DNA from: Fidelibacterota bacterium UBA7303
GTDB lineage: Bacteria > Fidelibacterota > Marinisomatia > Marinisomatales > UBA1611
Direction of reading: 5' to 3'
Length of the DNA: 38,514 nucleotides
Assembly: GCA_002471805.1 (NCBI GenBank)
Contig: DKQR01000066.1
Location: 1-38,514, forward strand
Position numbers and translations under genes: made by a program. Position 1 is the first letter of the stretch, and the number at the start of each line of letters is the position of its first letter. The notes beneath the pieces are model-generated. The model did no database searches, had not been told where the DNA came from, and saw only the letters and a program-made list of their open reading frames with translations. Below are positions 7,895 through 24,248 of the stretch, one piece after another.

Positions 7895-7898
7895 AAGA

Positions 7899-9086: not shown

Positions 9087-9099
9087 TGGGAGAATTTTC

Positions 9100-10092
9100 A
9101 TGTCAAGACCAGTAACATTATGCACAGGACAGTGGGCGGATTTGCCTGTAACCGTTCTGGCAGAAAAAGCATCATCTTGGGGTTATGATGGACTTGAACT
9201 TGCTTGTTGGGGCGATCACATGGACGTTGAAAAAGCCGCATCTGATCTCAATTATTGTGAAGAGCATCTTGAAAAATTAGCGAAGCACAATTTGAACGTT
9301 TATGCCATCAGTAATCATTTGGCAGGACAATTGGTTTGTGACCCGAATAATGATTCCCGCTCCGATTTATTTGCGCCAGATGATTGCGCAGGTGATGCAG
9401 AGAAAAAACGAGCCTGGGCTGTGGACAACATGAAAAAAACAGCTATGGCTGCGAAAAATTTAGGTATTGATGTTGTCAACGGATTCACTGGATCACCCAT
9501 CTGGCATTATTTCTATAGTTTTCCGCCTGTATCCAAACAAATGATTGATGATGGCTTTGGATATTTTGCTGAAATGTGGAATCCAATTCTGGACGTATTT
9601 GATGAATGCAGAGTTAAGTTTGCCTTGGAAGTGCACCCCACAGAAATTGCTTTTGATATTGTAACTGCTGATCGTGCTTTGGAAACTCTCAATAGAAGGG
9701 AAGCTTTTGGGTTCAATTTTGATCCAAGCCATCTGCATTGGCAAATGATTGACCCCATTACATTCATAAATGAATTCAAGGATAGGATTTATCACTGTCA
9801 TATGAAAGATACGGCTTTACAACTCGATGGACGTACAGGGATTCTTGGTTCTCACTTGGATTTTGGGCATCCGGAACGAGGTTGGGATTTCAGATCGCTT
9901 GGACGCGGAGATATCAATTTTGAAGATATTATCCGCACTTTTAATCATATTGGGTATAGTGGCCCATTATCCGTTGAGTGGGAAGACACAGGAATGGACC
10001 GTGAACACGGTGCGGCCGAAGCATGTGATTTTGTAAAACAATTGGACTTTCAACGATCAGAAGTAGCTTTTGATGCTGCTTTTGAAGAATAG
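9100..10092 (+). CDS. Sugar phosphate isomerase/epimerase (xylose-isomerase-like TIM barrel)
   Basis: This is a 330-aa ORF with the Shine-Dalgarno-like GGGAGA at 9088-9093. The segments GYDGLELACWGDH, ALEVHPTEIAFD, FNFDPSHLHWQ and SVEWED are typical metal-site strands of the AP_endonuc_2 / xylose-isomerase-like fold. Confidence 0.8.
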   Translation: MSRPVTLCTGQWADLPVTVLAEKASSWGYDGLELACWGDHMDVEKAASDLNYCEEHLEKLAKHNLNVYAISNHLAGQLVCDPNNDSRSDLFAPDDCAGDAEKKRAWAVDNMKKTAMAAKNLGIDVVNGFTGSPIWHYFYSFPPVSKQMIDDGFGYFAEMWNPILDVFDECRVKFALEVHPTEIAFDIVTADRALETLNRREAFGFNFDPSHLHWQMIDPITFINEFKDRIYHCHMKDTALQLDGRTGILGSHLDFGHPERGWDFRSLGRGDINFEDIIRTFNHIGYSGPLSVEWEDTGMDREHGAAEACDFVKQLDFQRSEVAFDAAFEE

Positions 10093-10101
10093 GGGCCAAT
10101 T

Positions 10102-11667
10102 ATGAATACTCATCAATCCCAGATCAATTCAAAATGGCTATTTAAAGCAAGTTTTATTGCTCTAATCGCAACATCATTTGCATTTGTGACACGTTTTGCT
10201 GTTCTAGCCGATTGGGGAAGACAGTTTAATTTGAGTAGTACGCAAATGGGAGAAATTGGCGGCGCCGGTGTTTGGCCATTTGCCATTAGCATTATTCTTT
10301 TCAGTTTGGTTGTTGACCGAATCGGATATGGAACGGCTATGGTATTTGCATTCATATGCCATATCGCATATGGTGTTATGGCTGTATTCTGGGCGCCGAA
10401 TGCAAACCCTGATCAAGCCTACGCTATTCTTTTCGGGGCCAGTGTTATTCTTGCGTTGGGGAATGGCACTGTAGAAGCAGTGATTAATCCAGTTGTGGCT
10501 ACGATGTTTGACCGAGACAAAACAAAGTGGTTGAATATTCTCCATGCCGGATGGCCCGCAGGTCTTGTGGGAGCCGGACTCATGACTATGGCTATGGGTG
10601 GAGCAGATTGGCGATATAAGGTTGGTTTGATCTTTATTCCAACTTTGGTCTATGGCGTCATGATATATAAACAAAAGTGGCCAGTACAGGAACGTGTTGC
10701 TGCAGGGGTTTCTTATATGGAAATGTTAAGGGAGTTTGGTATTCTCGCATCACTCCTGGTCATCCCCATTATCATACGCCAGATTGCAGTGGTATTCAAT
10801 CTACCATTGTCCACTGAAATCATTCTGGATGTGGCATTAATATTTGCTTTTTCCTATTCGATTTGGCCGGAAAAAGAAACCATTACACAATCGAAATTGT
10901 CCAGCTCCCTGGGAAGTCCAATGCTTTTTATTCTAATGTTAATTATGATGCCCTTGGCGACCACGGAAATTGGAACCGATGGCTGGATTACAGCCCTAAT
11001 GGAAAAAGCCATGGGTGATATTGGATTACCTGCTGTTACTGTTTTGGTGTATACCTCGGCAATTATGATGGTTCTACGGTTTTATGCTGGTCCTATTATT
11101 CATCGATTTAAACCGCTTGGGTTGTTAATAATTAGTTCCGGTGTGGCAGCAGTTGGTTTATTTCTATTATCTAAAAGCACAGGAATGACCATTTTATTTG
11201 TGGCAACATTTTATGGATTAGGGAAAACATTTTTCTGGCCAACTATGTTAGGCGTCGTGTCAGAACAGTGCCCCAAAGGTGGAGCATTGACCTTAAATGC
11301 CATTGGTGGTATGGGCATGCTGGCGGTTGGTGTTCTTGGAATGCCGTTCATTGGTTCACTGCAGGATAATGCTTCTTCTGAATTGCTGATGGAAAAAAAT
11401 CCTACCATTTATTCTCAAATTGTAGTGGAAAAGGATGGAATCTTTGGAGAATACAACGCAATTGACCAAGATAAAAAAACTGAGCTCAGTAACGAGAATC
11501 AATCAACAGTTAATATGATCGTTGATGAAGCCCGTCATGGTGCTTTGGCTTATATGGCTATCTTTCCTGTTATCATGCTTTTCAGTTACCTTGGTTTGAA
11601 TTTTTATTTTAAGTCTAAAGGGGGCTATGAACAAATAATCCTTAAGACAAATCAAGCCAATCCTTAA
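10102..11667 (+). CDS. MFS-type transporter (substrate unknown)
   Basis: This is a 521-aa protein with many hydrophobic helices on either side of a central loop. It sits inside the sugar-oxidation cluster. The family call is by overall architecture only. Confidence 0.6.
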   Translation: MNTHQSQINSKWLFKASFIALIATSFAFVTRFAVLADWGRQFNLSSTQMGEIGGAGVWPFAISIILFSLVVDRIGYGTAMVFAFICHIAYGVMAVFWAPNANPDQAYAILFGASVILALGNGTVEAVINPVVATMFDRDKTKWLNILHAGWPAGLVGAGLMTMAMGGADWRYKVGLIFIPTLVYGVMIYKQKWPVQERVAAGVSYMEMLREFGILASLLVIPIIIRQIAVVFNLPLSTEIILDVALIFAFSYSIWPEKETITQSKLSSSLGSPMLFILMLIMMPLATTEIGTDGWITALMEKAMGDIGLPAVTVLVYTSAIMMVLRFYAGPIIHRFKPLGLLIISSGVAAVGLFLLSKSTGMTILFVATFYGLGKTFFWPTMLGVVSEQCPKGGALTLNAIGGMGMLAVGVLGMPFIGSLQDNASSELLMEKNPTIYSQIVVEKDGIFGEYNAIDQDKKTELSNENQSTVNMIVDEARHGALAYMAIFPVIMLFSYLGLNFYFKSKGGYEQIILKTNQANP

Positions 11668-11682
11668 ACGACAGTTGACAGA

Positions 11683-12960
11683 TTGATTTCATATTTGGAA
11701 AAAACAGAATACTATTTACAAAACAACCTAATCCCCTTTTGGGCTAACAGGGTTGTAGAAAAAAAATATGGTGGATTTCAGACCAATTTTGACCGAAATG
11801 GAATCAGGACCAATGTCACCGAAAAATCATTTTTAGCCCAATGCCGCAGTCTTTTTACCATTTCTCATACAGTTCGATCTGGATATACTTGGCCAAATCA
11901 TGAACAAGCATTGGCCCAGGGGATTAAATTTCTTTTCAAATATTACCAGGACAAAAAGTACGGTGGCTATTACTGGATTGTGAATGAGGATGGATCTGTT
12001 CTTGATGATAATAAGATAATTTACGGTCACGCATTTCTCATTTATGGATTATCGGAGTTTGCATTATTAACCGGTGACGAGTCTGTAAAAACTGAAGCTA
12101 TCCGTGTGTTTGACTTTTTACAGAATAAAATAAAAGATCAAGAATATGGTGGCTATTTTGAACACTTCAATCGCCAATTTGAACCCATTAAAGCGCGAAA
12201 AGATATAGGCGTTTTTAAATCATTGGATGTGCACATGCATCTTATGGAAGCATTTACAACGTTATATGAATTAACGGGCGATGAAAAGCATCGGTTGGCC
12301 CTCGAAGAAATAAATACCCTTATTATTAATAAAATGATTCATAAGGAGACAGGAACGGGTATTTCCATGTTTACGCAAGATTGGTCCCCGATCGCAAATG
12401 TTGAATTGGAGACGGTTTGGGGCGCGGATCGTTTTGATGAAAATGGTAAATCCATTGATATTACGTCTTATGGCCATAATATTGAATTGACCTGGTTGTA
12501 TCTCCTTTCTCAAGATGTGCTTAAAATCCCCCGTGAGAAAAGCTGGGGTAAAATGGTGAAAATATATGAACATACTTACCAGAATGGGATCGATTGGATA
12601 AACGGTGGTTTATTTGTTGAAGGTGAAAAAAAAGGATCCGCCACTGAAACAAATAAAGAATTCTGGCAACAAGCCGAGGGAATGGTTGGATTTTTAGATG
12701 CCTATTTAATGACGGATGATGAAAAATATTTAGATGCTTTTAAAAATATCCACGATTTTGTATTTGAAAAAATGATCAACTGGGAACAAGGGGAATGGTT
12801 TGCTCTATTGGATCAAAAAGGAAACGTTATATGGGATTATATGGGGACCAGTTGGAAAACATTATACCATACCGTTCGAGGCATGTGTGAAATATCCAAC
12901 CGATTACGGAAAATCATTATAGAATTAAAAAACAAATCATTAGATAAAGTGATGGCATAA
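11683..12960 (+). CDS. AGE-family epimerase/isomerase (N-acylglucosamine 2-epimerase / cellobiose 2-epimerase / YihS-like)
   Basis: This is a 425-aa ORF with a TTG start at 11683. There is no upstream in-frame ATG and the next ATG codon in frame lies far downstream (HMHLMEAF). The N-terminus LIPFWANRVVEKKYGGFQTNFDRNG and the repeated YGGY/YGHAF/GGLF motifs are characteristic of the (alpha/alpha)6 AGE fold. Confidence 0.75.
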   Translation: MISYLEKTEYYLQNNLIPFWANRVVEKKYGGFQTNFDRNGIRTNVTEKSFLAQCRSLFTISHTVRSGYTWPNHEQALAQGIKFLFKYYQDKKYGGYYWIVNEDGSVLDDNKIIYGHAFLIYGLSEFALLTGDESVKTEAIRVFDFLQNKIKDQEYGGYFEHFNRQFEPIKARKDIGVFKSLDVHMHLMEAFTTLYELTGDEKHRLALEEINTLIINKMIHKETGTGISMFTQDWSPIANVELETVWGADRFDENGKSIDITSYGHNIELTWLYLLSQDVLKIPREKSWGKMVKIYEHTYQNGIDWINGGLFVEGEKKGSATETNKEFWQQAEGMVGFLDAYLMTDDEKYLDAFKNIHDFVFEKMINWEQGEWFALLDQKGNVIWDYMGTSWKTLYHTVRGMCEISNRLRKIIIELKNKSLDKVMA

Positions 12961-12976
12961 AAAACAGGAGAACATC

Positions 12977-14380
12977 ATGGAAGAACTCATAAAGAAAAAT
13001 GAAAAAAGTAGTCAAAGAATATCAAGAAGAGATTTTATAACCAAATCGTCTGCTGCCGCAGCCGCCTTTATGATTGTGCCGCGATATGTTTTGGGTGGAC
13101 CAGGTTATACCGCTCCAAGTGACAAAATTAATATAGCAGCCATCGGAGTTGGCGGTAAGGGAAGATCAGACATTGCTGCTGTCGCTACGGAAAATATCGT
13201 ATCCCTATGTGATGTGGATGAAGTAAAAATGTTTGATACAATAAAACGTGCCGGCGAATGGGCAGAAGAAAAAGGGTTGTCCGAAAATCCATTGACGAAA
13301 GTGCCGAGATACAAAGATTTTCGTGAAATGTTAGATAAACAAAAAGATATTGATGCAGTAACTGTCAGTACACCTGATCACTTCCATGCAGTCGCCGCCA
13401 TCACGGCTATCAAACAGGGGAAACATGCATTTGTCCAGAAGCCACTTACCTATTCTGTAGATGAAGCTAAAAAATTAAGCGCTGCTGCAAAAAAAGCCGG
13501 TGTTGTCACTCAGATGGGAAACCAAGGCCATGCAGGCGAAGGAATTCGACTCATTGGCGAATGGCTTAAAGATGATGCTATCGGTGAAGTTCGGGAAGTG
13601 CATTGCTGGACAAATAGACCAATTTGGGATACAGGCATGAATCGTCCTGCAGAAATACCATCTGTTCCACCCACATTGGATTGGGATCAATGGATTGGGC
13701 CTGCGCCTTTCAGACCTTATCATCCTGACTATGCACCATGGAGTTGGAGAGCATGGTGCGACTTTGGGACTGGTGCGTTAGGTGATATGGGTGCTCATAT
13801 TTTTGATATTCCCTATCACACATTAAAAATGGATCACCCCACATCTGTTTTTGCCAGTTCATCCAAATTTAATGGAGAATCTTGGCCGGTAGCATCCACC
13901 ATATATTACGAATTCCCACAACGGGGCTCACTACCCCCTGTAAAATTGACTTGGTACGATGGCGGCATCATGCCGCCTCGACCTGAAGGGATCGAACCGG
14001 GAAGACGCATGGGCGATGGCGATGGCGGTATCATGTTCTATGGTGATAAAGGAATGATTATGTGCGGTTGCTATGGTAGAAACCCAAGATTGGTTCCGGA
14101 AACAAGTATGAAGGAATATCAACGTCCGCCAAAAACACTGTCCAGATCTCCGGGAATACATGAGGAATGGGTCCAGTGCATTAAGGAAAGCAAGCAAGCC
14201 TCATCAAATTTTGATTATGCCGCCAGATTAACCAGCACTATGTTGTTGGGAAATATTGCCATCCGCATGGCGCCGAAAAGTACCAAATTAGAATGGGATG
14301 GAATAGCAGGTAAATTCACCAATATGGATGAAGCCAATGATTATCTTGGCCGTGAATATCGCGACGGCTGGAATTTGTAA
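12977..14380 (+). CDS. TAT-exported Gfo/Idh/MocA-family oxidoreductase (paralogue 1)
   Basis: This is a 467-aa ORF with the Shine-Dalgarno-like AGGAGA at 12966-12971. The twin-arginine signal is SRRDFITKSSAAAAAF, with the RR codons at 13025-13030. The Rossmann motif is IAAIGVGGKG and the family motif is FVQKPLT. Confidence 0.85.
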   Translation: MEELIKKNEKSSQRISRRDFITKSSAAAAAFMIVPRYVLGGPGYTAPSDKINIAAIGVGGKGRSDIAAVATENIVSLCDVDEVKMFDTIKRAGEWAEEKGLSENPLTKVPRYKDFREMLDKQKDIDAVTVSTPDHFHAVAAITAIKQGKHAFVQKPLTYSVDEAKKLSAAAKKAGVVTQMGNQGHAGEGIRLIGEWLKDDAIGEVREVHCWTNRPIWDTGMNRPAEIPSVPPTLDWDQWIGPAPFRPYHPDYAPWSWRAWCDFGTGALGDMGAHIFDIPYHTLKMDHPTSVFASSSKFNGESWPVASTIYYEFPQRGSLPPVKLTWYDGGIMPPRPEGIEPGRRMGDGDGGIMFYGDKGMIMCGCYGRNPRLVPETSMKEYQRPPKTLSRSPGIHEEWVQCIKESKQASSNFDYAARLTSTMLLGNIAIRMAPKSTKLEWDGIAGKFTNMDEANDYLGREYRDGWNL

Positions 14381-14400
14381 TACTAAAAAAAGGGTATACG

Positions 14401-15009
14401 ATGAATAATAAATATTTATTTGGTTTGATTGCAGCGATTGCAGTTGCGTTTGCTGCAAAAATGATGAATGCTCCATCTGGAAATGGTTGGATCTCATTGT
14501 TCAACGGGAAAGATCTAACAGGCTGGCGCGCCAGTGAAAGTGGAGATTTTCGTGTTGAAGATAGCGCCATTGTTGTGCGGGGGAAAAGGGCTCATTTATT
14601 TTCAGAAAAAGAATTCCAGAATTTTGAATTCAAATGTGAAATCATGACCCAATACGGCAGTAATTCCGGTCTATATTTTCATACCCAGTATGAAGAATCC
14701 TGGCCCAGTCGTGGGTATGAAGTCCAGGTGAATACGTCCCATGGAGATCCGGTGAAAAATGGCAGCCTTTGGGGTGTGGTGAGATCTTTTGACCCCATTG
14801 TCAAGGACAATGAATGGTTCACGCTGGAAGTCAAAGTGGATGGTAAACATGTGGTGACCAAAGTGAATGGGAAAGTTGTGGTGGATTATAATGAGTTAGA
14901 GGGTGTTACCGCTGGCCGGAGAATCGATAAAGGGTCCTTTGCGATCCAGGCTCATGATCCCAAAAGCGTTGTGCGTTACAGAAATATTATGGTTAAACCA
15001 TTTAATTAG
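14401..15009 (+). CDS. DUF1080 (3-keto-disaccharide hydrolase, PF06439-like) secreted protein
   Basis: This is a 202-aa ORF with the signal peptide MNNKYLFGLIAAIAVAFAAK. The segments GWISLFNGKDLTGWRA, FEFKCEIM..GSNSGLYFH, LEVKVDGKHVVTKVNGKVV and FAIQAHD match the DUF1080 concanavalin-like pattern. Confidence 0.8.
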   Translation: MNNKYLFGLIAAIAVAFAAKMMNAPSGNGWISLFNGKDLTGWRASESGDFRVEDSAIVVRGKRAHLFSEKEFQNFEFKCEIMTQYGSNSGLYFHTQYEESWPSRGYEVQVNTSHGDPVKNGSLWGVVRSFDPIVKDNEWFTLEVKVDGKHVVTKVNGKVVVDYNELEGVTAGRRIDKGSFAIQAHDPKSVVRYRNIMVKPFN

Positions 15010-15065
15010 TCGGCAATGAATACATCTGTGGTATCTAATTTCAAGATTCTAAAATTGGATATAAA

Positions 15066-16430
15066 TTGAACGAAAATGAGACAATTATGAATAAGAAAAA
15101 GGAAGACAAAATAACTCGAAGAGAATTTATGGGAAAAGCTGCTGCTACTGCTGCAGCATTTACCATTGTACCGCGCTACGTTTTGGGGGGGACCGAATAC
15201 ACTGCTCCAAGTGATAAACTGAATATTGCATGTGTGGGGATTGGCGGGAAAGGACATTCAGATGTGCATGGTGTAAGTTCTGAAAATATTTATGCACTGT
15301 GCGATGTTGATGATGTAAAAGCTGCAGAAACCTACAGGGATTTTCCTAAAGCAAAACGCTATACAGATTTCCGTAAAATGCTGGAAAAAGAAAAGGAAAT
15401 TGATGCTGTTACTGTTACTACGCCAGATCACAATCATGCTGTGGTTGCCATTGCAGCCATGGATCTGGGGAAGCATGTTTATGTGCAAAAACCTTTAACA
15501 CATACTGTAGAAGAAGCAAGGAAACTGGCAGAAAAAGCCAAAGAATATAATTTGGTAACACAGATGGGAAACCAAGGGCATGCCGGTGAAGGCGGACGGT
15601 TGATCAATGAATGGATTTGGGATGGTGCCATTGGTGATGTTTATGAAGTCCATGTCTGGACGAACCGACCCATTTGGCCACAGGGAATTATCAGACCCGA
15701 GACGATACCATCTGTTCCGTCTTCCTTAGACTGGAATCAATGGCTGGGACCGGCAAAGTGGAGACCTTATCACCCCGCTTATGCTCCTTTTGTCTGGCGA
15801 GGGTGGCTGGATTTTGGTACAGGTGCCCTGGGTGATATGGGAGCCCATTTAATTGATCATCCTTACTGGGCATTAAAGATGGAATATCCCGATACTGTGC
15901 AGGCAAGCTCCAGTCCGATTAACGATGAAACCTATCCAAACGCATCCATAGTAACATATGAATTTCCAGCAAGAGATAAGATGCCGCCAGTAAAAATGAT
16001 TTGGTACGATGGTGGATTAACACCACCCAGGCCCAAAGAGCTGGAACCGGGCCGGAAAATGGGCGATGGCGGGGGAGGAGTTTTGTTTGTGGGAACAAAG
16101 GGGAAAATGATGTGCAGTACATATGGGAATAATCCCCGTATCATTCCGGAAACAAAAATGAAAGAATACAAGAGACCTCCAAAATCCATACCAAGATCTT
16201 CTGGAATTAGGGAAGAATGGATTGAAGCCATAAAAGGCGGACCTGCAACCACATCCAATTTTGAATATGCATCAAAATTGACTGAAACTATGCTACTTGG
16301 ATGTATCGCATTACGGGTCGCTGACAAACGAACCATTCTCGAATGGGACGGGAATAAGGGACAGTTTACCAATTTGGATGAAGCCAATGCCTTCTTGCAT
16401 AAAGAATACAGGGATGGCTGGACACTTTAA
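15066..16430 (+). CDS. TAT-exported Gfo/Idh/MocA-family oxidoreductase (paralogue 2)
   Basis: The track ORF begins at TTG 15066. ATG 15087 ([25 protein letters not shown]) is an equally plausible start. The protein has a twin-arginine motif (TRREFMGK) and is collinear with the 12977-14380 product along its whole length. Confidence 0.85.
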
Positions 16431-16439
16431 AGGATAATT

Positions 16440-17786
16440 GTGGTTCAAAATAAAAACGCCAAAGTAATAAACCGGCGACAATTTATTAAAACCAGTACAG
16501 CTGCAGGGGCCAGTCTCATTTTGGCGCCTCATGTACTTAAAGGTGCTAAATCCTTTGGCGTAGATGACATTAATGTGGCATTATTAGGTGCTGGTGCCCA
16601 AGGACAAGTACTCATGAATGCCTGCCTGAAAATCCCGGGAATTCGGTTCAAAGCTGTCTGCGATATCTGGAAAGAATATAACCAGAAGCGGGTTTATCGT
16701 TTGTTGGGGAAATATGGTCATAAGTTGAATGCCTATGAAGATTATAGGGAAATGCTGGCAAATGAAAAAGATCTTGATGCTGTTATTGTAGCAACGCCTG
16801 ATTTCTGGCATGCAGAACATGCCACTGCCTGTCTCGAAGCGGGGCTGAATGTATATTGTGAAAAGGAAATGTCCAATACGCTTGAAGGAGCAAAGCAAAT
16901 TGTTCGGGCCGCGAAAAAAAGCGGGAAACTATTACAGGTTGGGCATCAACGGCGAAGCAATCCGCGATACATCCACTGTTATGAAAAATTAATCAAGGAA
17001 GCAAAAATATTAGGACATATTACAACGATTAACGGTCAGTGGAATCGCGCGGTGCAGCCCGATTTGGGCTGGCCGGAAAAATATGCCATTCCCCAACCTA
17101 GATTAGAACAATATGGTTTTCAATCCATGGCACAATTCAGAAACTGGCGTTGGTATAAAGGGTTCGGCGGCGGACCCATCGTTGATTTGGGTTCACACCA
17201 AATTGATATATTCAGTTGGTTTTTGGATGCGGTTCCATTATCCGTAATGGCATCCGGCGGCACCGATTATTATGATTCTCAAACTCATGAATGGTATGAT
17301 ACAGTCATGGCCATGTTTGAATACGATACACCAAAGGGATTGGTTCGTGCTTTTTACCAAACTATTACGACCAACAGCAATATGGGATATTTCGAAAATT
17401 TTATGGGTGACCAGGGTACATTGCAAATATCAGAATCAGCCGGTCGTGCAGGTATTTACCGGGAACAATCAGCTCCTCTATGGGACAAATGGGTGGATAA
17501 AAGCTTCCTGAATGCCCCGGCAGAAGAAAAAATACCTAATGTCAACGGGGCGGTATTGGATGTACGGGAAACTGTTGCACCACCAAAGTATGAATTGCCG
17601 GTTACCTTCAACGACCCCTACCATAAACCTCATTTGGAAAATTTCTTTAATTCCATTCGGGGTACGGATACATTGAATTGTCCGGCTGAAGTGGGCTATG
17701 AAACGGCTGTTGCTGTATTAAAAGTAAATGAAGCCGTTGAAAAAGCATCGCTTGTTAAATATGATAGAAATGAGTTTACACTGTAA
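16440..17786 (+). CDS. TAT-exported Gfo/Idh/MocA-family oxidoreductase (third, more divergent)
   Basis: This is a 448-aa ORF with a GTG start at 16440. The twin-arginine signal is NRRQFIKTSTAAGASLILAP, the Rossmann motif is VALLGAGAQGQ and the family motif is YCEKEMS. Confidence 0.8.
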   Translation: MVQNKNAKVINRRQFIKTSTAAGASLILAPHVLKGAKSFGVDDINVALLGAGAQGQVLMNACLKIPGIRFKAVCDIWKEYNQKRVYRLLGKYGHKLNAYEDYREMLANEKDLDAVIVATPDFWHAEHATACLEAGLNVYCEKEMSNTLEGAKQIVRAAKKSGKLLQVGHQRRSNPRYIHCYEKLIKEAKILGHITTINGQWNRAVQPDLGWPEKYAIPQPRLEQYGFQSMAQFRNWRWYKGFGGGPIVDLGSHQIDIFSWFLDAVPLSVMASGGTDYYDSQTHEWYDTVMAMFEYDTPKGLVRAFYQTITTNSNMGYFENFMGDQGTLQISESAGRAGIYREQSAPLWDKWVDKSFLNAPAEEKIPNVNGAVLDVRETVAPPKYELPVTFNDPYHKPHLENFFNSIRGTDTLNCPAEVGYETAVAVLKVNEAVEKASLVKYDRNEFTL

Positions 17787-17999
17787 CTGATAAAATCAAA
17801 TTCATTATATATAAAACCCAAGGCCTTTAAACAATTTAGATTTACAATAGGAAATTTGTCTGAAAATTAATCCATTATTATTTAAACAAAAAATAAGTAC
17901 CGAGTGTTTATTGGTAGTTCAAAAACAGAAGAAGAAAAAAGAAACATAAAATTCCATAACCTTGATATGATAACTTCAGTTGATTACTATGTAAAATCT

Positions 18000-18047
18000 A
18001 AAACGGTACCCAATTTTGTAGGGTATCGAATACGCTCCGAGACCGTT
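18000..18047 (+). other. Possible RNA structure (terminator/attenuator-like) in the leader of the cytochrome operon
   Basis: AAACGGT (18000-18006) pairs perfectly with ACCGTTT (18041-18047), and TGTTG follows the stem, continuing its 3' T run as TTTTGTTG (18045-18052). An inner hairpin, GGTACCC (18004-18010) with GGGTATC (18020-18026), forms 7 bp including one G-U. It competes for bases 18004-18006. I assessed this by hand folding only. Confidence 0.2.
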
Positions 18048-18082
18048 TTGTTGAGTGATTTTCAATTTCATGAATAAGAATT

Positions 18083-19963
18083 TTGTTTAAAATGGTGATG
18101 AACCAAAACAATAGAATAAAACTATTTTTTATTGGACTTATTTTTCTATTACAGGGGACCCTGTTTTCAGGAGAAGGAAAATTAGGAGATTCCCCTGATG
18201 GTAGCCGTCATCCAGCGGTTCATAAAATAAAATTAATGGACCACGATAGTTCTATCATTCATCTGTACGAACAGCCGCTTTTACCCTTTTCTACAGAAAT
18301 GACTTGTGGTGCCTGCCATAATTATCAATCAATTCGTTCCGGCTGGCATTTTAATGCTGGCAGTGCTGGGAATGATGGTCGTAATAGTCAACCGTGGATT
18401 TATTCCAATCCAAAAACATTGACTCAAATTCCGTTGAGTTATAGAAATTGGGACGGCACTTTCACACCGGAAGAAATTGGGATGTCCGTTTTTAAATTTA
18501 CACAATTATTCAATCGCCATCACCCCGGTGGAAGTGTGGGAGAGCAGGAAAAATTTTGGGATAAAAACAATATATTTCGTTGGAATGTGTCCGGGAAGGT
18601 GGAAGTGAACTGTTTGGTTTGCCATGATGTTGACCCGGCCAATGATCGCTCCCAATATGCAAGGCAACTTAAAAAACAAAATTTCCGTTGGGCTCCCGCC
18701 AGTACGGTATCCTTTGCTGATGTAAATGGTTCTGCGAAAGATATGCCGGATCATTATGATATTTATTATGGCTTAGCGCCGGATGAATCAAAATTCATTC
18801 CACCTGGCATTGATTATGATAAAAACATGTTCAATGAAAAAGATGAGGTCTTTTTTGATGTAACAAGAAATATCCCTAACAAAAATTGTTATTTCTGCCA
18901 TTCATCTATGATAGTTGATAAAAAACGATCTGAATTCTGGCAGCATGGCGAAGATGTTCATTTAAAGCGTGGAATGAATTGTGTTGATTGCCACCGGAAT
19001 GGATTGGACCACCAGATGGTACGGGGATATCCCAACGAATACAGAGATAGAAATTCACCAGAATTGTATGCTTTTTCCTGTGCGGGCTGCCATTTTCCCA
19101 ACAAAAATGATCAAAATATTTCACATAATAATCATGGACAAATTCCACAACATAAAGGACTACCCCCGATCCATTTCGATAGACTTTCCTGCACGGCATG
19201 TCATTCGGGAGAAATACCCGAAAGTGAATCGTTTTTTACAAAGACGTCCATGGCCCATGCACTGGGAACCCATGGAATCAATAAAGCAGACAGTACGCTG
19301 CCGCATATTATAACACCCGTATTTCAAAAAGATGACAATGGGAAAATCAGTCCGGTTAATATGGTATGGCCCTCTTTTTGGGGCTGGAAAAATGATGGCA
19401 ATATTTCTCCCATGAACCAAGACGGTTATGAATCGATAGTAAAAAATGTTTTATCAGAATTGCCATTAAATATAAATGGTTCATGGCCCGTTATCGAGGA
19501 AAATCAGATATCAGATATTTTAACATTATTTGCATCTCAAAAAAGTGAATCGACGCCCGTTTTTGTAAGTGGGGGAAAAGTGTATGTTCAAGATTCCAAT
19601 GGACTAAGATCGTTGGATAATCCAATTGCTGATCCATACGCATGGCCTATTGCCCACAATGTTCGTCCTGCAACTATGGCATTGGGCAGTGGCGGATGTA
19701 CAGATTGCCATAGTGTTGATTTACCATTTTATACCGGCATCATTACAGTTGATTCCCCCCTTAAAACCGATGATGCAATGATGGTTGATTTTCACAGTAA
19801 AAATTTGTTTGCGGCCCAAGTATTTTCAAATGCATTCATATTTAGACCCTGGCTTAAAGGCATTATTTATTTGTCGGTTGGCCTAATTCTTTCGATCTTA
19901 GCTTTATTTTTAATTAATGGGTTGGGAAAATGGATTGAATCAACCCAATTGGACGAGAATTAA
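18083..19963 (+). CDS. Heptahaem c-type cytochrome, secreted, with a C-terminal transmembrane anchor
   Basis: This is a 626-aa ORF with a TTG start at 18083; ATG 18092 is an alternative. There are seven CXXCH motifs, at 18305-18319, 18611-18625, 18887-18901, 18980-18994, 19079-19093, 19190-19204 and 19697-19711. These account for all 14 cysteines in the protein. The N-terminal signal peptide is RIKLFFIGLIFLLQGTLFSG and the C-terminal hydrophobic helix is GIIYLSVGLILSILALFLINGL. Confidence 0.85.
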   Translation: MFKMVMNQNNRIKLFFIGLIFLLQGTLFSGEGKLGDSPDGSRHPAVHKIKLMDHDSSIIHLYEQPLLPFSTEMTCGACHNYQSIRSGWHFNAGSAGNDGRNSQPWIYSNPKTLTQIPLSYRNWDGTFTPEEIGMSVFKFTQLFNRHHPGGSVGEQEKFWDKNNIFRWNVSGKVEVNCLVCHDVDPANDRSQYARQLKKQNFRWAPASTVSFADVNGSAKDMPDHYDIYYGLAPDESKFIPPGIDYDKNMFNEKDEVFFDVTRNIPNKNCYFCHSSMIVDKKRSEFWQHGEDVHLKRGMNCVDCHRNGLDHQMVRGYPNEYRDRNSPELYAFSCAGCHFPNKNDQNISHNNHGQIPQHKGLPPIHFDRLSCTACHSGEIPESESFFTKTSMAHALGTHGINKADSTLPHIITPVFQKDDNGKISPVNMVWPSFWGWKNDGNISPMNQDGYESIVKNVLSELPLNINGSWPVIEENQISDILTLFASQKSESTPVFVSGGKVYVQDSNGLRSLDNPIADPYAWPIAHNVRPATMALGSGGCTDCHSVDLPFYTGIITVDSPLKTDDAMMVDFHSKNLFAAQVFSNAFIFRPWLKGIIYLSVGLILSILALFLINGLGKWIESTQLDEN

Positions 19964-19966
19964 TTC

Positions 19967-20386
19967 ATGTTCAGCTCTAGAATAAATATGATTAATACCT
20001 TATGGTTCATCAGTTTTATTGGAATGGCAATCACAGGATTTTTTCCCCTTATCTTGGGTAATACCACTTTGAATGGCTGGTGGATGATTCTGCATGTATC
20101 CATCGCACCATTATTTTCTATTTTGCTGGCGATCGGGGCATTGCATTGCGCAAAAAAAATGGGAATTGATTTTAAAGATGCACCTGAAAGTAAGTTGAGC
20201 AGAATCATTTTTTGGTTCTTTTTGTTTCTATTTATCCCAAATGCATTATCCATTCTATTCAGTATGAATACATGGTTTGTATCATCCACTCAATATGTGT
20301 TTTTAGAAGTGCATTTTTATTCAGCAATAGGTATGTTATTATTGGTCGTACTTCATTTTAATTTTTCAAGAAAGAACAAAGGATAA
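19967..20386 (+). CDS. Small 4-TM membrane protein, candidate dihaem cytochrome b-type partner (DUF4405-like)
   Basis: This is a 139-aa ORF that starts 3 nt after the cytochrome stop. It has four hydrophobic helices. The protein has exactly four histidines (H43, H60, H116 and H130), all in helices 2 and 4. Their spacings are 17 and 14 residues, close to the 13-14 classically seen in bis-His haem-b bundles. Confidence 0.5.
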   Translation: MFSSRINMINTLWFISFIGMAITGFFPLILGNTTLNGWWMILHVSIAPLFSILLAIGALHCAKKMGIDFKDAPESKLSRIIFWFFLFLFIPNALSILFSMNTWFVSSTQYVFLEVHFYSAIGMLLLVVLHFNFSRKNKG

Positions 20387-20400
20387 TTAGGAATACACAT

Positions 20401-21078
20401 ATGAAACCCAGCTTTAGATATATAAAATATGTAGTAACAACACTCGTTTGGATAATAACCTTTCTTTTTTCTCAAGAATCAAAATTGGTTCCTATTAAAC
20501 TTGAATTGCCAAAACCCATGTTTATCGGAACACCCCAAAACCTAAATGTGAAAAATCTTCAAAAACCACTGGGCAAACCCAGACCGGCGTTTCTGGCCCC
20601 GGTCGGCACCAAAAATATCGCACTGGGAAAACCAATTTACAGTTCCGATGATTTTCCTGTGATTGGAGAAATAGAAATGATTACCGATGGCGATAAAAAT
20701 GCAGCTGAAGGTAGTTTTGTAGAATTGGGTCCATTCCTACAGGATGTGACGATTGATTTAGAGGAAAATTATAAAATATTTGCCATTGTTTTTTGGCATT
20801 ACCATAAACAGGCTCGGGTGTATTTTGATGTTGTGGTTCAAACAGCGGATAATAAGGATATGACAAAAAATATTCATACACTTTTTAATAATGATATGGA
20901 CAATTCGGCCGGATTTGGTGTAGGAAATGATATGCATTATGTGGAGACATCCGAAGGAAAACTCCTCGATGCCAAAGGTGTCACCGGGCGTTTTGTGAAA
21001 CTTTACAGCCGGGGCAACACCAACAACGATTTGAATCATTATATTGAAGTAGCTGTATACGGCCTTCCTTTGAAATGA
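20401..21078 (+). CDS. Secreted discoidin (F5/8 type C)-like carbohydrate-binding domain protein
   Basis: This is a 225-aa ORF with an AGGAA ribosome-binding site upstream. The N-terminal hydrophobic segment is VVTTLVWIITFLF. The segments NIALGKPIYSSD, MITDGDKNAAEGSFVELGP, VTIDLEENYKIFAIVFWHYH, GRFVKLYSRGNTNND and IEVAVYG follow the discoidin jelly-roll pattern. Confidence 0.6.
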   Translation: MKPSFRYIKYVVTTLVWIITFLFSQESKLVPIKLELPKPMFIGTPQNLNVKNLQKPLGKPRPAFLAPVGTKNIALGKPIYSSDDFPVIGEIEMITDGDKNAAEGSFVELGPFLQDVTIDLEENYKIFAIVFWHYHKQARVYFDVVVQTADNKDMTKNIHTLFNNDMDNSAGFGVGNDMHYVETSEGKLLDAKGVTGRFVKLYSRGNTNNDLNHYIEVAVYGLPLK

Positions 21079-22628
21079 TTTCCGATCGTTACGGAACGAC
21101 CATTGTTCTGTCGATTTTCATTATAGCGGGTTTTTTTCGCTTCACAGATCTCTCCAGCCGGCCTATGCATGGCGATGAAGCCATCAATGCAGTCAAACTT
21201 TCCGGTGTAGTTGAAACTGGCCAATTTGATTATAAACCAACCCAGCATCATGGACCGCTTTTATATTTTACGGGCTACTTGTTTTCAGCTTTCCATGGTT
21301 TGGATGGCATTCAGGATTTCAGTGAAGAGTTTCTCCGGAGTGTTACTGGTTTTGTAGGCATCCTGCTTTTATGGATTGGGTTCACTTTTAAAAAATCACT
21401 TCAGAATAATGTATTATATCTTGCTTTTGGGTTGATGGCTATTTCACCATCGTTGGTTTTTTATAGTCGGTTTTTTATCCATGAGATTATTATCGTTTTC
21501 TTCAGTTTAGGAATGATCGCAAGCGGATATCAATATTTGAAGACTGAAAAGTCGTTGTGGCTTGCATTGACTGGAGTGGCACTGGGATGTATGATATCTA
21601 CAAAGGAAACGTGGCCTCTATTTTTGATTGCTATGGGAAGTTCAGCCGCAATATTATACTTCCATAAAGGTGTAAAACGGCTTATTTCATTGAAACATGG
21701 TATAACAATTGCTGGGATTGCAGTGGCAACAACCTTCCTTTTTTATTCTGACTTCTTCCGGGATATAAATAACAGTACTGATGCCTTTCTGGCTTTCAAG
21801 CCATATCTGGAAAGAGTATCATCCGAAGGAATTCATAACCATCCCTGGTATTTTTACCTGAATATCATTTTCCCGCTTGGCCATTCCGGAAGTTGGCTGC
21901 ATCTGGGAGAGGGTTTACTCTTCTTAGTTTTTATCTTCAATTTGCCGCTGATGCTTCGTTCTGAAAAACAACCTATAACTATACAGTTTTTGTTTTGGTA
22001 TTCTTTGGTTCTATTATTTGTGTTTTCAGCAATTCCATACAAAACACCCTGGAACATTTTAGGTATCATGCCTGGAATGATTATTGTGTCTGCGAATACA
22101 ATTGTCAATCAAGTCTATAAATTGAATCAAAAAATATTGGGAAACATATTTATTGTTTTATTGGGTGGTTTACTTATGTTGCAGTCCTATTCCTATAATT
22201 TCAAGAATGAAGCCAATCCAGCAAATCCATACGTCTATGCTCATCCCACAAAGGATATTTTCACGATAGAAACTAAAATTCATGACATGGCTAATGTTTT
22301 AACTAATGAAATTGATTTTTCCGTTTTTGTCATGGCAACCGGGGATGACTATTGGCCCTTTCCGTGGTATTTACGGGATATGGATAATGTTGGCTATTGG
22401 AATCATGTTCCGCTAGATGTGGGATCAGCATCAGTTGTATTCGTTTCGTCTGACTTAACAGATAATTTAGTCAAAACAATTTATGAAAAGGCCGAACCTG
22501 GAATGTCATCCTTGCTCATTCCATTGTTTGATGAAATGATGGAACTTCGTCCCGGCGTTGAAATTAGCGGGTACATCAAAAAGGACGTTTATGATTTATA
22601 TGAGCGTTTAAGTTCACATGACGGATAA
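21075..22628 (+). CDS. Polytopic GT-C-fold glycosyltransferase (TIGR03663 / PMT_2 / ArnT-like)
   Basis: This is a 517-aa ORF that overlaps the upstream gene by 4 nt (ATGA). It has about 11 hydrophobic helices followed by a soluble C-terminal domain. The first extracytoplasmic loop carries RPMHGDEAINAV, an acidic DE motif typical of GT-C enzymes, followed by YKPTQHHGPLLYF. Confidence 0.65.
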   Translation: MISDRYGTTIVLSIFIIAGFFRFTDLSSRPMHGDEAINAVKLSGVVETGQFDYKPTQHHGPLLYFTGYLFSAFHGLDGIQDFSEEFLRSVTGFVGILLLWIGFTFKKSLQNNVLYLAFGLMAISPSLVFYSRFFIHEIIIVFFSLGMIASGYQYLKTEKSLWLALTGVALGCMISTKETWPLFLIAMGSSAAILYFHKGVKRLISLKHGITIAGIAVATTFLFYSDFFRDINNSTDAFLAFKPYLERVSSEGIHNHPWYFYLNIIFPLGHSGSWLHLGEGLLFLVFIFNLPLMLRSEKQPITIQFLFWYSLVLLFVFSAIPYKTPWNILGIMPGMIIVSANTIVNQVYKLNQKILGNIFIVLLGGLLMLQSYSYNFKNEANPANPYVYAHPTKDIFTIETKIHDMANVLTNEIDFSVFVMATGDDYWPFPWYLRDMDNVGYWNHVPLDVGSASVVFVSSDLTDNLVKTIYEKAEPGMSSLLIPLFDEMMELRPGVEISGYIKKDVYDLYERLSSHDG

Positions 22629-23526
22629 AATTGCTGTTCACGGAATTGATTCAAACTGGCTAGAGGAGCACGACATTCACCGGTTTTCCCATAAAGCCAT
22701 GGCAACAGTTTTCGATATATTGATTTATCATGATAACTATTCTTATGCCCTTCAGGCCGCAACGGAATCTTTTGCGCAATTAGATTTACTGGAGCAGGAT
22801 TTAAGCCGGTTTGTGGTAAACAGCGACATTTCCCGGATCAACCAGTTAAAGCCAGGAGAATCCACAGTAGTTGGAGTAGACTCTATGGAATGTTTAGTGA
22901 TTTGTCAGAGGCTTCAAAGCGAAACTAATGGCGCATTTAATCCCACCGTTGGGAAAGTCATTGATCGTTGGAAAAATGAAACTGAATCGGTAATTAATAT
23001 CAATGAAAATATTGGTAATCTGATTCTGGATTCAAAATCATATACAGTCACCTTAATTGATAATCCCATTTCCATTGATTTGGGTGGTATCGGCAAAGGA
23101 TATGCCTTAGATAAACTCAAAGTGACATTTCAGGAATGGGGTATTGAAACCATATTAATCAATAGCGGGAGGAGTACCTTTTTAGCCGTGGAAGCTCCGA
23201 AAGACGAAACAGGTTGGCCATTAACAATTTCCCATCCATCTGATAATAGTGAATTAAAACGAATTTCCTTAAATAAGAGTGCAATTGCCGGTTCTGGGAT
23301 AGAAAAAGGGAATCATATTGTTTCACCCTCAAATTATCAGCCGGTTCAAAACAGATTGGGTGCCTGGTCTGTGGCGAAAACAGGTGCGGAAGCAGATGCT
23401 CTTTCCACATCATTTATGATTATGAGCGAAAGGGAAATAATAGATTATATGAACCATCACCCGGATGTGGGTGGAATGGTTTTTGATGAAAAAGGAAGTA
23501 TGAGGAAATTTGGTACTTTCGAATAA
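22618..23526 (+). CDS. apbE: FAD:protein FMN transferase (ApbE family)
   Basis: This is a 302-aa ORF that overlaps the upstream gene by 11 nt. It has the ApbE hallmarks HKAMATVFDI, SDISRIN, NGAFNPTVG, DLGGIGKGYALDKL and AIAGSG. Confidence 0.85.
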   Translation: MTDKIAVHGIDSNWLEEHDIHRFSHKAMATVFDILIYHDNYSYALQAATESFAQLDLLEQDLSRFVVNSDISRINQLKPGESTVVGVDSMECLVICQRLQSETNGAFNPTVGKVIDRWKNETESVININENIGNLILDSKSYTVTLIDNPISIDLGGIGKGYALDKLKVTFQEWGIETILINSGRSTFLAVEAPKDETGWPLTISHPSDNSELKRISLNKSAIAGSGIEKGNHIVSPSNYQPVQNRLGAWSVAKTGAEADALSTSFMIMSEREIIDYMNHHPDVGGMVFDEKGSMRKFGTFE

Positions 23527-23534
23527 TAACTGAA

Positions 23535-24248
23535 TTAGATGGGAAATTTCAGTTTCCAACTATCTCGCAATACTTCCCATATCGTCGGAATAGAGGAAAG
23601 GCGGCTGTCTCGATCGCAGGTCCATTCAATGGGCATTTCCTTCATAGAAATATACTTTTCCTTTGCAAGTCTTAATATTTCGATTTCGAATAAGAATCCA
23701 TCAATCCGCCCTCTGCTGAATAAATCGCGAGCAATGATTCCATCATAAATCTTAAACCCGCACTGCGTATCGCTGAATCCCCAAATGGAAGGGAACAACA
23801 ATTTAGTGACTATCCTGAAAAGAATAGAAACCAGGCGACGATACCAGACCAATTGTTTACGAATAATGCTTTCTGGTAGATGGCGTGAGCCAAGAATAAT
23901 CTGGTGTTCATTATTCCGAATCATATCGATCCCTATGGTGATAAAATCTAATGCAACTGTTTTTCCACTATCTATGAACATGACAATATCACCTTTGGAT
24001 TCAAGAATGCCTTTCCGAACTGCATGGCCTTTTCCATAATGATCATTTTCTTTTAATATAACTAAACGAACATTGTCCGTTAAGGATGTTTCATTTGCTA
24101 TTTCAGACGTTCCATCCGTACTTCCATCATCCGATACAATTATTTCACCAGTGATGTTATTATTTGTTAAGTAATCGGAAAGGGAGGTGATATCTTCACT
24201 AATTTTTTCCGCTTCATTTAAAACGGGTATAATGATGGATAGATTCAT
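23535..24248 (-). CDS. Family 2 glycosyltransferase (polyprenyl-phosphate glycosyltransferase-like)
   Basis: This is a 237-aa ORF. The N-terminus LSIIIPVLNEAEKI and the segment VSDDGSTDGT are classic GT2 motifs, and the small size fits DPM/DPG-synthase-like enzymes. Its stop codon lies 8 nt from the stop of apbE on the other strand. Confidence 0.8.
   Translation of the reverse strand: MNLSIIIPVLNEAEKISEDITSLSDYLTNNNITGEIIVSDDGSTDGTSEIANETSLTDNVRLVILKENDHYGKGHAVRKGILESKGDIVMFIDSGKTVALDFITIGIDMIRNNEHQIILGSRHLPESIIRKQLVWYRRLVSILFRIVTKLLFPSIWGFSDTQCGFKIYDGIIARDLFSRGRIDGFLFEIEILRLAKEKYISMKEMPIEWTCDRDSRLSSIPTIWEVLRDSWKLKFPI

Follow-up and report, generated by a model that had tools for sequence, protein, structure and literature searches.

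Exported dehydrogenases and a cytochrome pair in one gene array

The stretch of DNA analyzed here (the window) comprises 38,514 nucleotides of contig DKQR01000066.1 from Fidelibacterota bacterium UBA7303. Its + strand carries an array of 13 genes at 7830-23526, in which all intergenic distances lie between -11 and 56 bp, apart from a single spacer of 296 bp. The array begins with genes for a cytoplasmic oxidoreductase of the Gfo/Idh/MocA family (Gfo0), a TIM-barrel protein, an MFS transporter and an AGE-family epimerase, followed by Gfo1, a DUF1080 protein, Gfo2, and Gfo3; after the spacer come a heptahaem cytochrome c, a 139-aa protein with four transmembrane (TM) segments, p225, a GT-C protein, and ApbE, and then a convergent GT2 gene. 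Our subject is the relation of Gfo3, the last of three Gfo/Idh/MocA enzymes predicted to be exported by way of twin-arginine translocation (TAT), to the cytochrome c and the four-TM protein that follow it. The evidence throughout comes from comparative genomics (gene content, motifs, synteny, fusions, and remote homology), and the Pfam scan took in 23 window open reading frames (ORFs), covering 2165-26849. The features at the center of the analysis are as follows.

12977-14380, + strand: Gfo1, TAT-exported homologue of BT2158-type glycoside 3-dehydrogenases (Pfam GFO_IDH_MocA plus C2 domain; twin-arginine motif SRRDFI)
14401-15009, + strand: secreted DUF1080/3-keto-disaccharide hydrolase between Gfo1 and Gfo2 (PF06439, E = 1.3e-43; N-terminal hydrophobic signal)
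15066-16430, + strand: Gfo2, TAT-exported homologue of BT2158-type glycoside 3-dehydrogenases (Pfam domains; twin-arginine motif TRREFM)
16440-17786, + strand: Gfo3, TAT-exported Gfo/Idh/MocA dehydrogenase of a distinct subfamily (RRQFI; Pfam TAT_signal)
17787-18082, no strand: AT-rich spacer (27% GC) of 296 bp between Gfo3 and cytochrome c
18083-19963, + strand: periplasmic heptahaem cytochrome c, 626 aa, Sec signal, anchored in the membrane by its C terminus (seven CxxCH; TM 589-607)
19967-20386, + strand: four-TM FdnI-like candidate cytochrome b, 139 aa (four TM segments, four His; remote profile match to FdnI)

The three exported dehydrogenases carry the PF01408 Rossmann domain at 62 to 74 bits, together with PF19051, PF22725, or PF02894, and Gfo1, Gfo2, and Gfo3 score 18.7, 18.8, and 20.4 bits, respectively, against the NCBIfam TAT_signal model (cutoff, 16.7). 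These domains and the twin-arginine motifs confirm the initial annotation, which had placed three TAT-signal Gfo/Idh/MocA genes here, the last ending at 17786. The three enzymes fall into two groups. The BT_2158_fam model (NF058561) matches Gfo1 and Gfo2 over their full lengths at 508 and 553 bits, both under the 750-bit equivalog cutoff, and it matches Gfo3 at only 90 bits, in the N-terminal Rossmann half alone; Gfo3 is 27 to 28% identical to Gfo1 and Gfo2. From these comparisons, Gfo1 and Gfo2 are assigned to the BT2158-type glycoside 3-dehydrogenases, and Gfo3 is assigned to a separate, highly conserved subfamily. At E <= 1e-100, that subfamily yields at least 5850 clusters at 90% identity, and proteins nearly identical to the window's Gfo3 are labeled Candidatus (Neo)marinimicrobiota. 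The subfamily's median identity across phyla is 66%, compared with 43% for the cytochrome c and 28% for the candidate cytochrome b.

Gfo3 retains the GxGxxG motif, Asp75, TPD..His124, Glu-Lys142, and Asp249-x-Gly-x-His253. In 10 cross-phylum sequences, G50/G52/G55, D75, E141-K142, D249, and H253 are invariant, as are the twin arginines, and these fold and catalytic residues are shared with Gfo0, Gfo1, and Gfo2; the catalytic-Lys motif reads EKE in place of EKP. The subfamily also has a conserved, subfamily-specific insertion of roughly 50 to 60 residues (about 340-400) and three invariant cysteines, Cys74, Cys140, and Cys414, with Cys140 and Cys414 missing from Gfo1 and Gfo2. The insertion and the invariant cysteines could form a docking element or a metal site. 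On the basis of its TAT signal, we propose that Gfo3 carries a tightly bound NAD(P) through the TAT system.

The protein encoded next on the + strand has exactly seven CxxCH motifs, with a Sec-type hydrophobic segment near its N terminus and a TM segment near its C terminus (residues 589-607), and the gene for the four-TM protein follows it, both as first annotated. An AlphaFold2 (AF2) model of the cytochrome built with 113 sequences is confident (predicted local distance difference test [pLDDT] score, 83; predicted template modeling [pTM] score, 0.82) and has a helix at 575-625; an earlier model from a 14-sequence alignment was discarded (pLDDT, 44). All seven CxxCH motifs and eight further histidines are invariant in the 113 cytochrome sequences. 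Eight extra invariant histidines are enough for seven bis-His haems, which is the signature of a wire and not of a catalytic haem. Of the 141 family representatives that reach 580 residues, 129 have seven CxxCH motifs. The family is compact: among 1.84 billion representatives, 494 clusters at 50% identity fall within E <= 1e-30; at E <= 1e-3, we found 1793 relatives in the 90%-clustered database, and the named ones among the 120 listed are hypothetical proteins.

Searches for a relative of this cytochrome with a solved structure gave no match. No PDB relative was found by sequence profile, where the best hit was a local match to NrfA (E = 0.013), and a Foldseek search with the confident AF2 model returned only noise (best E = 0.07; template modeling scores below 0.1). 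In Pfam, Cytochrome_C7 (32.2 bits; cutoff, 24.8) and Cytochrom_c3_2 (28.0 bits; cutoff, 25) match stretches of about 50 to 90 residues around the haem motifs. The NrfB-like, NapC/NirT, and MtrC-domain Pfam models are below cutoff, and the NCBIfam matches are far below cutoff. By its haem motifs the protein is a multihaem cytochrome, and it belongs to no named multihaem family searched. A role as an NrfA- or HAO-like enzyme is conceivable but not supported, given that the NrfA match is weak and local and that all seven haems can be bis-His.

The 139-aa protein has four histidines and, by hydropathy, TM segments at residues 8-26, 37-55, 77-95, and 110-128. A homologue search with this protein recovered close relatives only. 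An 18-sequence cross-phylum profile of its family matched FdnI (1kqf_C) over the full length, with an E value of 7.2e-5. In this alignment, His116 corresponds to FdnI His155 and His130 to FdnI His169, and His43 lies within one helical turn of FdnI His57. His43 (TM2) and His116 (TM4) are invariant in the family and are candidate ligands of a periplasmic-side haem, a part played by His57 and His155 in FdnI; the positive-inside rule places them at the periplasmic ends of TM2 and TM4. The equivalent of FdnI His18 in TM1 is absent, and that of His130 is present in 11 of the 18 aligned sequences (about 60%), so a cytoplasmic-side haem of the FdnI His18/His169 type is doubtful in this protein.

Gene order and fusions tie this protein to the cytochrome c. 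A family hidden Markov model located the four-TM protein after cytochrome c in 76 of 77 loci; in L067 (9830-12376), the two are fused. Across the best 150 50%-identity cytochrome representatives, at least 47 carry the four-TM domain at the C terminus of the cytochrome, and none of the 150 is fused to Gfo3, p225, GT-C, or ApbE. The fused proteins, P0276, P0277, P0280, and P0284 among them, would be convenient single-gene constructs. In another, distant locus (L163), the protein in this slot has a recorded Pfam match to Ni_hydr_CYTB (PF01292). The remote homology to FdnI, the frequent fusions, and the L163 match support the earlier suggestion of a candidate cytochrome b and point to a remote FdnI-type protein.

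The spacer at 17787-18082 is the only large gap in the array. The initial annotation had seen no convincing terminator after 17786, and this holds: a scan found no terminator-like site on the + strand of the spacer, its folding was not significant (z = 0.48), and it had no Rfam match. The spacer is not repeated elsewhere in the window and is kept in only one of the loci compared (L081, 94% identity), and relatives with 84% Gfo3 identity have a gap of about 20 bp where the window has 296 bp. It may be an internal promoter region acquired in this lineage. Operon continuity across it is plausible, if unproven.

Conserved adjacency of Gfo3 and the cytochrome

The initial annotation had proposed that the TAT-exported dehydrogenases pass electrons to the cytochrome module and had named their co-localization as a check beforehand. 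For a forward set, a pattern scan in which each species was represented by a single genome gave at least 552 species that have a cytochrome relative; we fetched the best 80 loci, called their ORFs, and classified these against the window proteins. For a reverse set, we pulled 80 metagenome loci with a Gfo3 alignment and counted the 74 that had at least 400 bp downstream. These 160 loci are the best-scoring matches, and their percentages describe the core of the family and not its fringe, a limit that tells against the interpretation given below. By label, the forward set comprised 40 Planctomycetota-type, 11 unclassified, 10 Calditrichota, nine Bacteroidota/Cytophagia, and three Neomarinimicrobiota loci, with two each from Omnitrophota and Acidobacteriota and one each from KSB1, Ignavibacteriae, and 'Deferribacteres'.

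A Gfo3-type gene lies immediately 5' of the cytochrome gene, on the same strand, in 65 of the 67 loci with at least 1.4 kb of upstream sequence, and it lies within 1.2 kb of the cytochrome in the remaining two. The gaps range from -59 to +257 bp by naive ORF calls and are mostly 0 to 100 bp. Loci with this adjacency carry the labels Neomarinimicrobiota, Calditrichota, KSB1, Bacteroidota, Ignavibacteriae, Planctomycetota, Omnitrophota, and Acidobacteriota. Counted slot by slot, a Gfo3-type gene fills the place directly upstream of the cytochrome in 62 of 77 cases, compared with 6 of 996 other slots, 148 of which hold some Gfo-family gene; the Fisher test value (P = 8.5e-79) overstates independence because the loci are related, and the relevant signal is retention across at least eight phylum-level labels.

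The same arrangement appears from the side of Gfo3. The cytochrome gene is directly 3' of Gfo3 in 57 of the 74 reverse-set loci, and in one more (L104) it comes after a second Gfo3 paralogue. Where the cytochrome is more distant or fused (L161/L162 and L168), the gene directly upstream is again a Gfo gene, with an identical set of Pfam domains. In four loci without a cytochrome (L108, 1866-2351; L123, 7227-7712; L150, 7291-7794; L153, 3058-3603), the gene directly after Gfo3 encodes a membrane protein of the DoxX/DoxD family, with Pfam E values from 8e-5 to 3e-9. Thus, what follows Gfo3 is either the cytochrome c/b pair or a different membrane protein whose family is associated with quinones, as expected if Gfo3 passes electrons to the membrane.

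The other two exported dehydrogenases behave differently. BT2158-type genes occur within 6.5 kb upstream of the module in 29 of 46 loci and DUF1080 genes in 23 of 46, so the linkage of Gfo1/Gfo2-type genes to the cytochrome module is frequent but looser than that of Gfo3. The co-localization check is accordingly strongly positive for Gfo3, and the earlier proposal does not stand for Gfo1 and Gfo2 as conserved partners.

The neighborhoods of the module have further recurrent members. In Planctomycetota-type loci (46 loci were looked at; for example L051, 12674-14059), an NCS1-family permease (Transp_cyt_pur) is found directly after cytochrome b, and ThuA-domain proteins and an FGGY-like kinase recur.

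Flanking genes and a cytoplasmic ApbE

The remaining genes of the array and the convergent GT2 gene are listed here.

7830-9086, + strand: Gfo0, cytoplasmic Gfo/Idh/MocA oxidoreductase (Pfam GFO_IDH_MocA N- and C-terminal domains; no RR motif or TAT signal)
9100-10092, + strand: xylose-isomerase-like TIM-barrel protein, no signal peptide (Pfam AP_endonuc_2, E = 4.7e-39)
10102-11667, + strand: MFS transporter (Pfam MFS_1; 11 TM-like segments)
11683-12960, + strand: N-acylglucosamine 2-epimerase-family protein (Pfam GlcNAc_2-epim, E = 4.4e-51)
20401-21078, + strand: p225, N-terminally anchored periplasmic protein with an F5/8-type-C-like domain (weak Pfam F5_F8_type_C_2 match)
21075-22628, + strand: GT-C glycosyltransferase-like membrane protein of the TIGR03663/Agl23 family (TIGR03663, 187 bits; cutoff, 126; Pfam PMT and PMT_2)
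22618-23526, + strand: ApbE-family FAD:protein FMN transferase, no signal peptide (Pfam ApbE, PF02424, 146.7 bits, E = 1.2e-42)
23535-24248, - strand: GT2 glycosyltransferase, convergent with the array (Pfam Glycos_transf_2)

Gfo0, whose top NCBIfam match is levoglucosan dehydrogenase at 110 bits, far under cutoff, is the cytoplasmic branch of a sugar island, and Gfo0, the TIM-barrel protein, the MFS transporter, and the epimerase are context only. Upstream of the array, an ORF for a 195-aa membrane protein (4975-5562) with a weak Ferric_reduct match (MsrQ/YedZ-like haem b) heads a + strand gene block and overlaps the start of an ORF for an 828-aa metallophosphatase.

Downstream of the module, the window's gene set is itself conserved: within 9 kb, p225 and GT-C are each found in 37 of 48 loci, ApbE in 40 of 48, and GT2 in 28 of 48. 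The four genes also stay with Gfo3 in loci that lack the cytochrome (L084-L086, L108, L115, and L123). GT2 has weak NCBIfam matches to ArnC, PpgS, and AglJ types and weakly resembles polyprenyl-phosphate sugar synthases. Taken together, p225, GT-C, and GT2 suggest periplasmic glycosylation of some target.

The ApbE of this cassette has conserved family motifs (PF02424). Of 45 orthologues, 44 have no signal peptide, and neither do those in L163 (4096-5076) and L166 (955-1887). Its gene lies directly after cytochrome b in four loci (L026, L049, L072, and L163), is kept with Gfo3 when the cytochrome is absent (L084-L086), and is kept beside the cytochrome pair where another gene stands in for Gfo3 (L166). 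The canonical [ST]GA[ST] flavinylation motif is absent from all conserved neighbor families of ApbE that we searched, and the protein lacks both the extracytosolic location (signal peptide or lipobox) and the neighboring substrate with this motif that mark such systems (Meheust 2021). The flavinylation survey of Meheust et al. was restricted to clusters in which a gene of the ApbE, FMN-binding, DUF2271, or DUF3570 type was predicted to encode a signal peptide or a lipidation site, and Gfo enzymes, multihaem cytochromes, and DUF4405 go unmentioned in its text. The window ApbE (22618-23526) is in this sense an 'orphan' cytoplasmic ApbE with no recognizable substrate nearby. Its conservation suggests that covalently bound FMN may be present in the module, though no target site was found, and Gfo3 is the logical target because it is the only module protein that folds in the cytoplasm.

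A proposed periplasmic dehydrogenase:quinone oxidoreductase

Our reading of these observations, to which we give a probability of about 0.6, is that Gfo3, the cytochrome c, and the cytochrome b form a membrane-bound, periplasm-facing dehydrogenase:quinone oxidoreductase; complex formation, the direction of electron flow, the substrate, and quinone as the acceptor are all things that we infer. Gfo3 would fold around its nicotinamide cofactor in the cytoplasm, be exported by the TAT system, and oxidize a sugar or glycoside hydroxyl in the periplasm, most likely to a keto-sugar, as its BT2158, DgpA, and GFOR relatives do. It would then dock on the tail-anchored cytochrome c, and electrons would run through the seven bis-His haems c, reach a haem b that His43 and His116 bind close to the periplasmic side, and go on to (mena)quinone. 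The module would serve as a respiratory outlet for the adjacent 3-keto-glycoside pathway (Gfo1, DUF1080, and Gfo2), either by direct oxidation of substrate or by regeneration of a keto-sugar hydride acceptor for the BT2158-type enzymes.

Several observations weigh against this reading. For the hydride of a bound NAD(P)H to reach one-electron haems, a flavin or a similar converter is normally required, and no flavin, Fe-S, or other two-to-one-electron converter could be assigned among the module proteins. The [ST]GA[ST] motif was not found in Gfo3, cytochrome c, cytochrome b, p225, or GT-C, and the one SGGT-like site in Gfo3 was rejected as a flavin site, since Ile, Val, or Leu replaces Thr275 in orthologues that have kept ApbE. 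We found no precedent of a haem chain that is fed by tightly bound NAD(P)H, and the characterized relatives GFOR, DgpA, and BT2158/AL3 recycle NAD(P) with sugar co-substrates. On the side of the cytochrome b, the 139-aa protein alone scores under every Pfam threshold (PF01292, E = 9.1; DUF4405, E = 0.45) and has no NCBIfam match, and the family has only one invariant haem-b site (His43 plus His116). Three loci with 73 to 75% Gfo3 identity (L084-L086) have Gfo3 followed by p225, GT-C, and ApbE, with no cytochrome or DoxX nearby; one distant cytochrome member (L164) has no Gfo neighbor; and in L166 (955-5738), which has another distant member, a protein of the FGE-sulfatase family stands in place of Gfo3 before the cytochrome, with ApbE divergent upstream. 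The cytochrome pair may serve other periplasmic enzymes. In the window itself, the 296-bp AT-rich spacer parts the two blocks and could carry its own promoter.

A first alternative is that the genes are co-regulated neighbors only, with all three TAT-exported enzymes working either by a ping-pong mechanism with sugar and keto-sugar co-substrates, as in GFOR, DgpA, and AL3/BT2158, or as redox-neutral NAD-dependent glycosidases like GH109, and with the cytochrome pair doing another periplasmic redox job. The published mechanisms of the nearest characterized relatives favor it, as do the top PDB sequence matches, which are DgpA and GFOR, with GH109 also among the matches; Gfo3 without a cytochrome, cytochrome relatives without a Gfo neighbor (L164 and L166), and the window's spacer would all fit as well. 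Nevertheless, co-regulation leaves unexplained the same-strand adjacency with gaps mostly under 100 bp across at least eight phylum-level lineages and the DoxX/DoxD swap in exactly the cytochrome slot, and a redox-neutral enzyme has no need of a membrane redox partner. We consider this alternative unlikely.

A second alternative keeps the complex but makes its substrate biosynthetic: Gfo3 would oxidize a lipid-linked or envelope glycan that is made by GT2 and handled by the GT-C protein (Agl23/ArnT/PMT-like), with p225 as target or adaptor and the cytochromes disposing of the electrons. Such a route would resemble the oxidation steps of the Ara4N or decaprenyl-arabinose pathways, and it draws on the recurrence of p225, GT-C, ApbE, and GT2 after the module (28 to 40 of the 48 loci), on the retention of this cassette with Gfo3 where the cytochrome is missing, and on the weak likeness of GT2 to polyprenyl-phosphate sugar synthases. 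The genes 5' of Gfo3, however, are catabolic in type (BT2158-type and DUF1080 genes at the frequencies given above, ThuA, permeases, and a sugar kinase), and the fused-cytochrome loci L161 and L162 have Gfo3 but no glycosyltransferase cassette in the 6 kb (L161) or 0.6 kb (L162) downstream; we rate the biosynthetic substrate as quite improbable. A reversed flow, from quinol through cytochrome b and the haems c to NAD(P)+ on Gfo3, which would then reduce 3-keto-sugars released by DUF1080 with the module as electron source, would suit a 3-keto-glycoside pathway that needs a reductant for 3-ketoglucose, and haem chains are reversible in principle, but with menaquinol at about -75 mV, its electrons would face a steep climb to NAD(P)+ (about -320 mV) or to a ketone/alcohol couple (near -200 to -300 mV), and BT2158-type enzymes already reduce keto-sugars with their own bound NADH, which makes this direction very improbable.

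The proposed oxidoreductase can be set beside known respiratory complexes. With formate dehydrogenase-N (FdnGHI) and [NiFe]-hydrogenase-1 (HyaABC) it would share a TAT-exported catalytic subunit, a wire with a single C-terminal TM anchor, and a four-TM cytochrome b of the FdnI/HyaC family. It differs in that the catalytic subunit is a Gfo/Idh/MocA nicotinoprotein and not a molybdenum-bis(pyranopterin guanine dinucleotide) (Mo-bisPGD) or NiFe enzyme, and in that a heptahaem cytochrome c of 626 aa, exported by Sec and not co-exported by TAT, takes the place of the 4x[4Fe-4S] protein as the wire. In contrast to FdnI, only the periplasmic-side haem b ligands are invariant here, with the His18 equivalent missing.

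A second group of comparable systems, the nearest in function, comprises the FAD-GDH gamma-alpha-beta complex of Burkholderia, fructose dehydrogenase of Gluconobacter, and the glucoside 3-dehydrogenase LacABC of Caulobacter, in which periplasmic oxidation of a sugar or glycoside feeds a membrane multihaem cytochrome c and the respiratory chain. These FAD sugar dehydrogenases capable of direct electron transfer combine a GMC-type subunit that holds FAD and 3Fe-4S with a trihaem cytochrome and with a small subunit that acts as a TAT 'hitch-hiker'. The module described here has instead NAD(P), a TAT signal on the catalytic subunit, seven haems, and a separate cytochrome b, and among the 23 window ORFs the Pfam scan detected neither a GMC or FAD domain nor a gene for a small subunit. 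LacABC makes 3-keto-glycosides, and its pathway shares downstream BT2156-59-like genes (PMC8121099; PMC6719666).

The closest match for the upstream part of the array is the BT2156-BT2160/AL1-AL5 pathway of oxidative glycoside cleavage, since Gfo1 and Gfo2 are strong BT2158 homologues, the DUF1080 protein is homologous to BT2157, and a TIM-barrel protein and a cytoplasmic Gfo are present here too. GT2 and GT39 genes flank the Alistipes AL1-AL5 cluster (Nasseri 2024, bioRxiv 10.1101/2024.03.25.586180). The pathways differ in that there is no cytochrome partner in Bacteroides or Alistipes, where NAD is recycled by 3-ketoglucose, and in that Gfo3 is not a member of the BT2158 family. For Gfo1/Gfo2-type enzymes, published work favors recycling of bound NAD by 3-keto-sugars (PMC8121099; bioRxiv 10.1101/2024.03.25.586180), and this ping-pong recycling remains the published mechanism that stands for BT2158-type enzymes. 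Liu 2021 proposed a sugar co-substrate for BT2158 and argued that in Bacteroides thetaiotaomicron a limited electron-transport chain 'probably precludes' dehydrogenases that depend on cytochrome c (PMC8121099). Nasseri 2024 showed recycling by 3-ketoglucose and named cytochromes only as a possibility (bioRxiv 10.1101/2024.03.25.586180).

Other systems resemble single parts of the proposal. GFOR (Zymomonas) and DgpA have the fold and catalytic motifs of Gfo3, and GFOR is TAT exported with tightly bound NADP, but their hydride acceptor is a second sugar (ping-pong), with no protein redox partner. In the nicotinoprotein-mycofactocin systems, a non-exchangeable NAD likewise needs a dedicated mediator linked to respiration (PMC3023750 and PMC11778925); these systems differ in being cytoplasmic, with a peptide-derived small-molecule carrier and no cytochromes c. 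DoxDA/DoxX, the thiosulfate:quinone oxidoreductase, is of interest for the loci in which a DoxX/DoxD-family protein replaces the cytochrome pair beside Gfo3, with the differences that the window has none and that the function of DoxX outside this enzyme is poorly defined.

The initial annotation had regarded the coupling of such dehydrogenases to a cytochrome as undescribed. The idea is not entirely new, since Nasseri et al. raised cytochromes as a possibility, and no partner had been identified in the literature searched. We found no description there of a module of Gfo/Idh/MocA enzyme, multihaem cytochrome, and cytochrome b, with subscription journals thinly covered, so that a prior description is possible.

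The retained cytoplasmic ApbE allows a bolder version of the proposed oxidoreductase, which we regard as speculative and improbable. Gfo3 would found a new class of respiratory 'nicotinoprotein' dehydrogenases that hold both NAD(P) and a covalent FMN set by the signal-less ApbE at a non-canonical site before TAT export, with a chain from NAD(P)H to FMN, seven haems c, haem b, and quinone, and would also re-oxidize the BT2158-type enzymes through a diffusible sugar/keto-sugar couple. If this were so, marine and sediment-dwelling bacteria would gain energy by respiration from oxidative (non-Koshland) glycan cleavage.

The analysis defines three items for further work: an uncharacterized multihaem fold without a solved relative in the cytochrome c, an FdnI-like minimal cytochrome b, and the orphan cytoplasmic ApbE. 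TAT-exported Gfo/Idh/MocA proteins are very abundant in polysaccharide-degrading Bacteroidota, Planctomycetota, Marinimicrobia, and their relatives, and what re-oxidizes their nicotinamide cofactor in the periplasm has been left open (PMC8121099; Nasseri 2024). A dedicated cytochrome c/b partner kept across phyla offers a concrete, testable answer to how the cofactor could be re-oxidized where there is no free NAD(P). If the proposed oxidoreductase is real, part of the glycan oxidation in bacteria of oxygen-minimum zones and sediments would feed the quinone pool directly from the periplasm.

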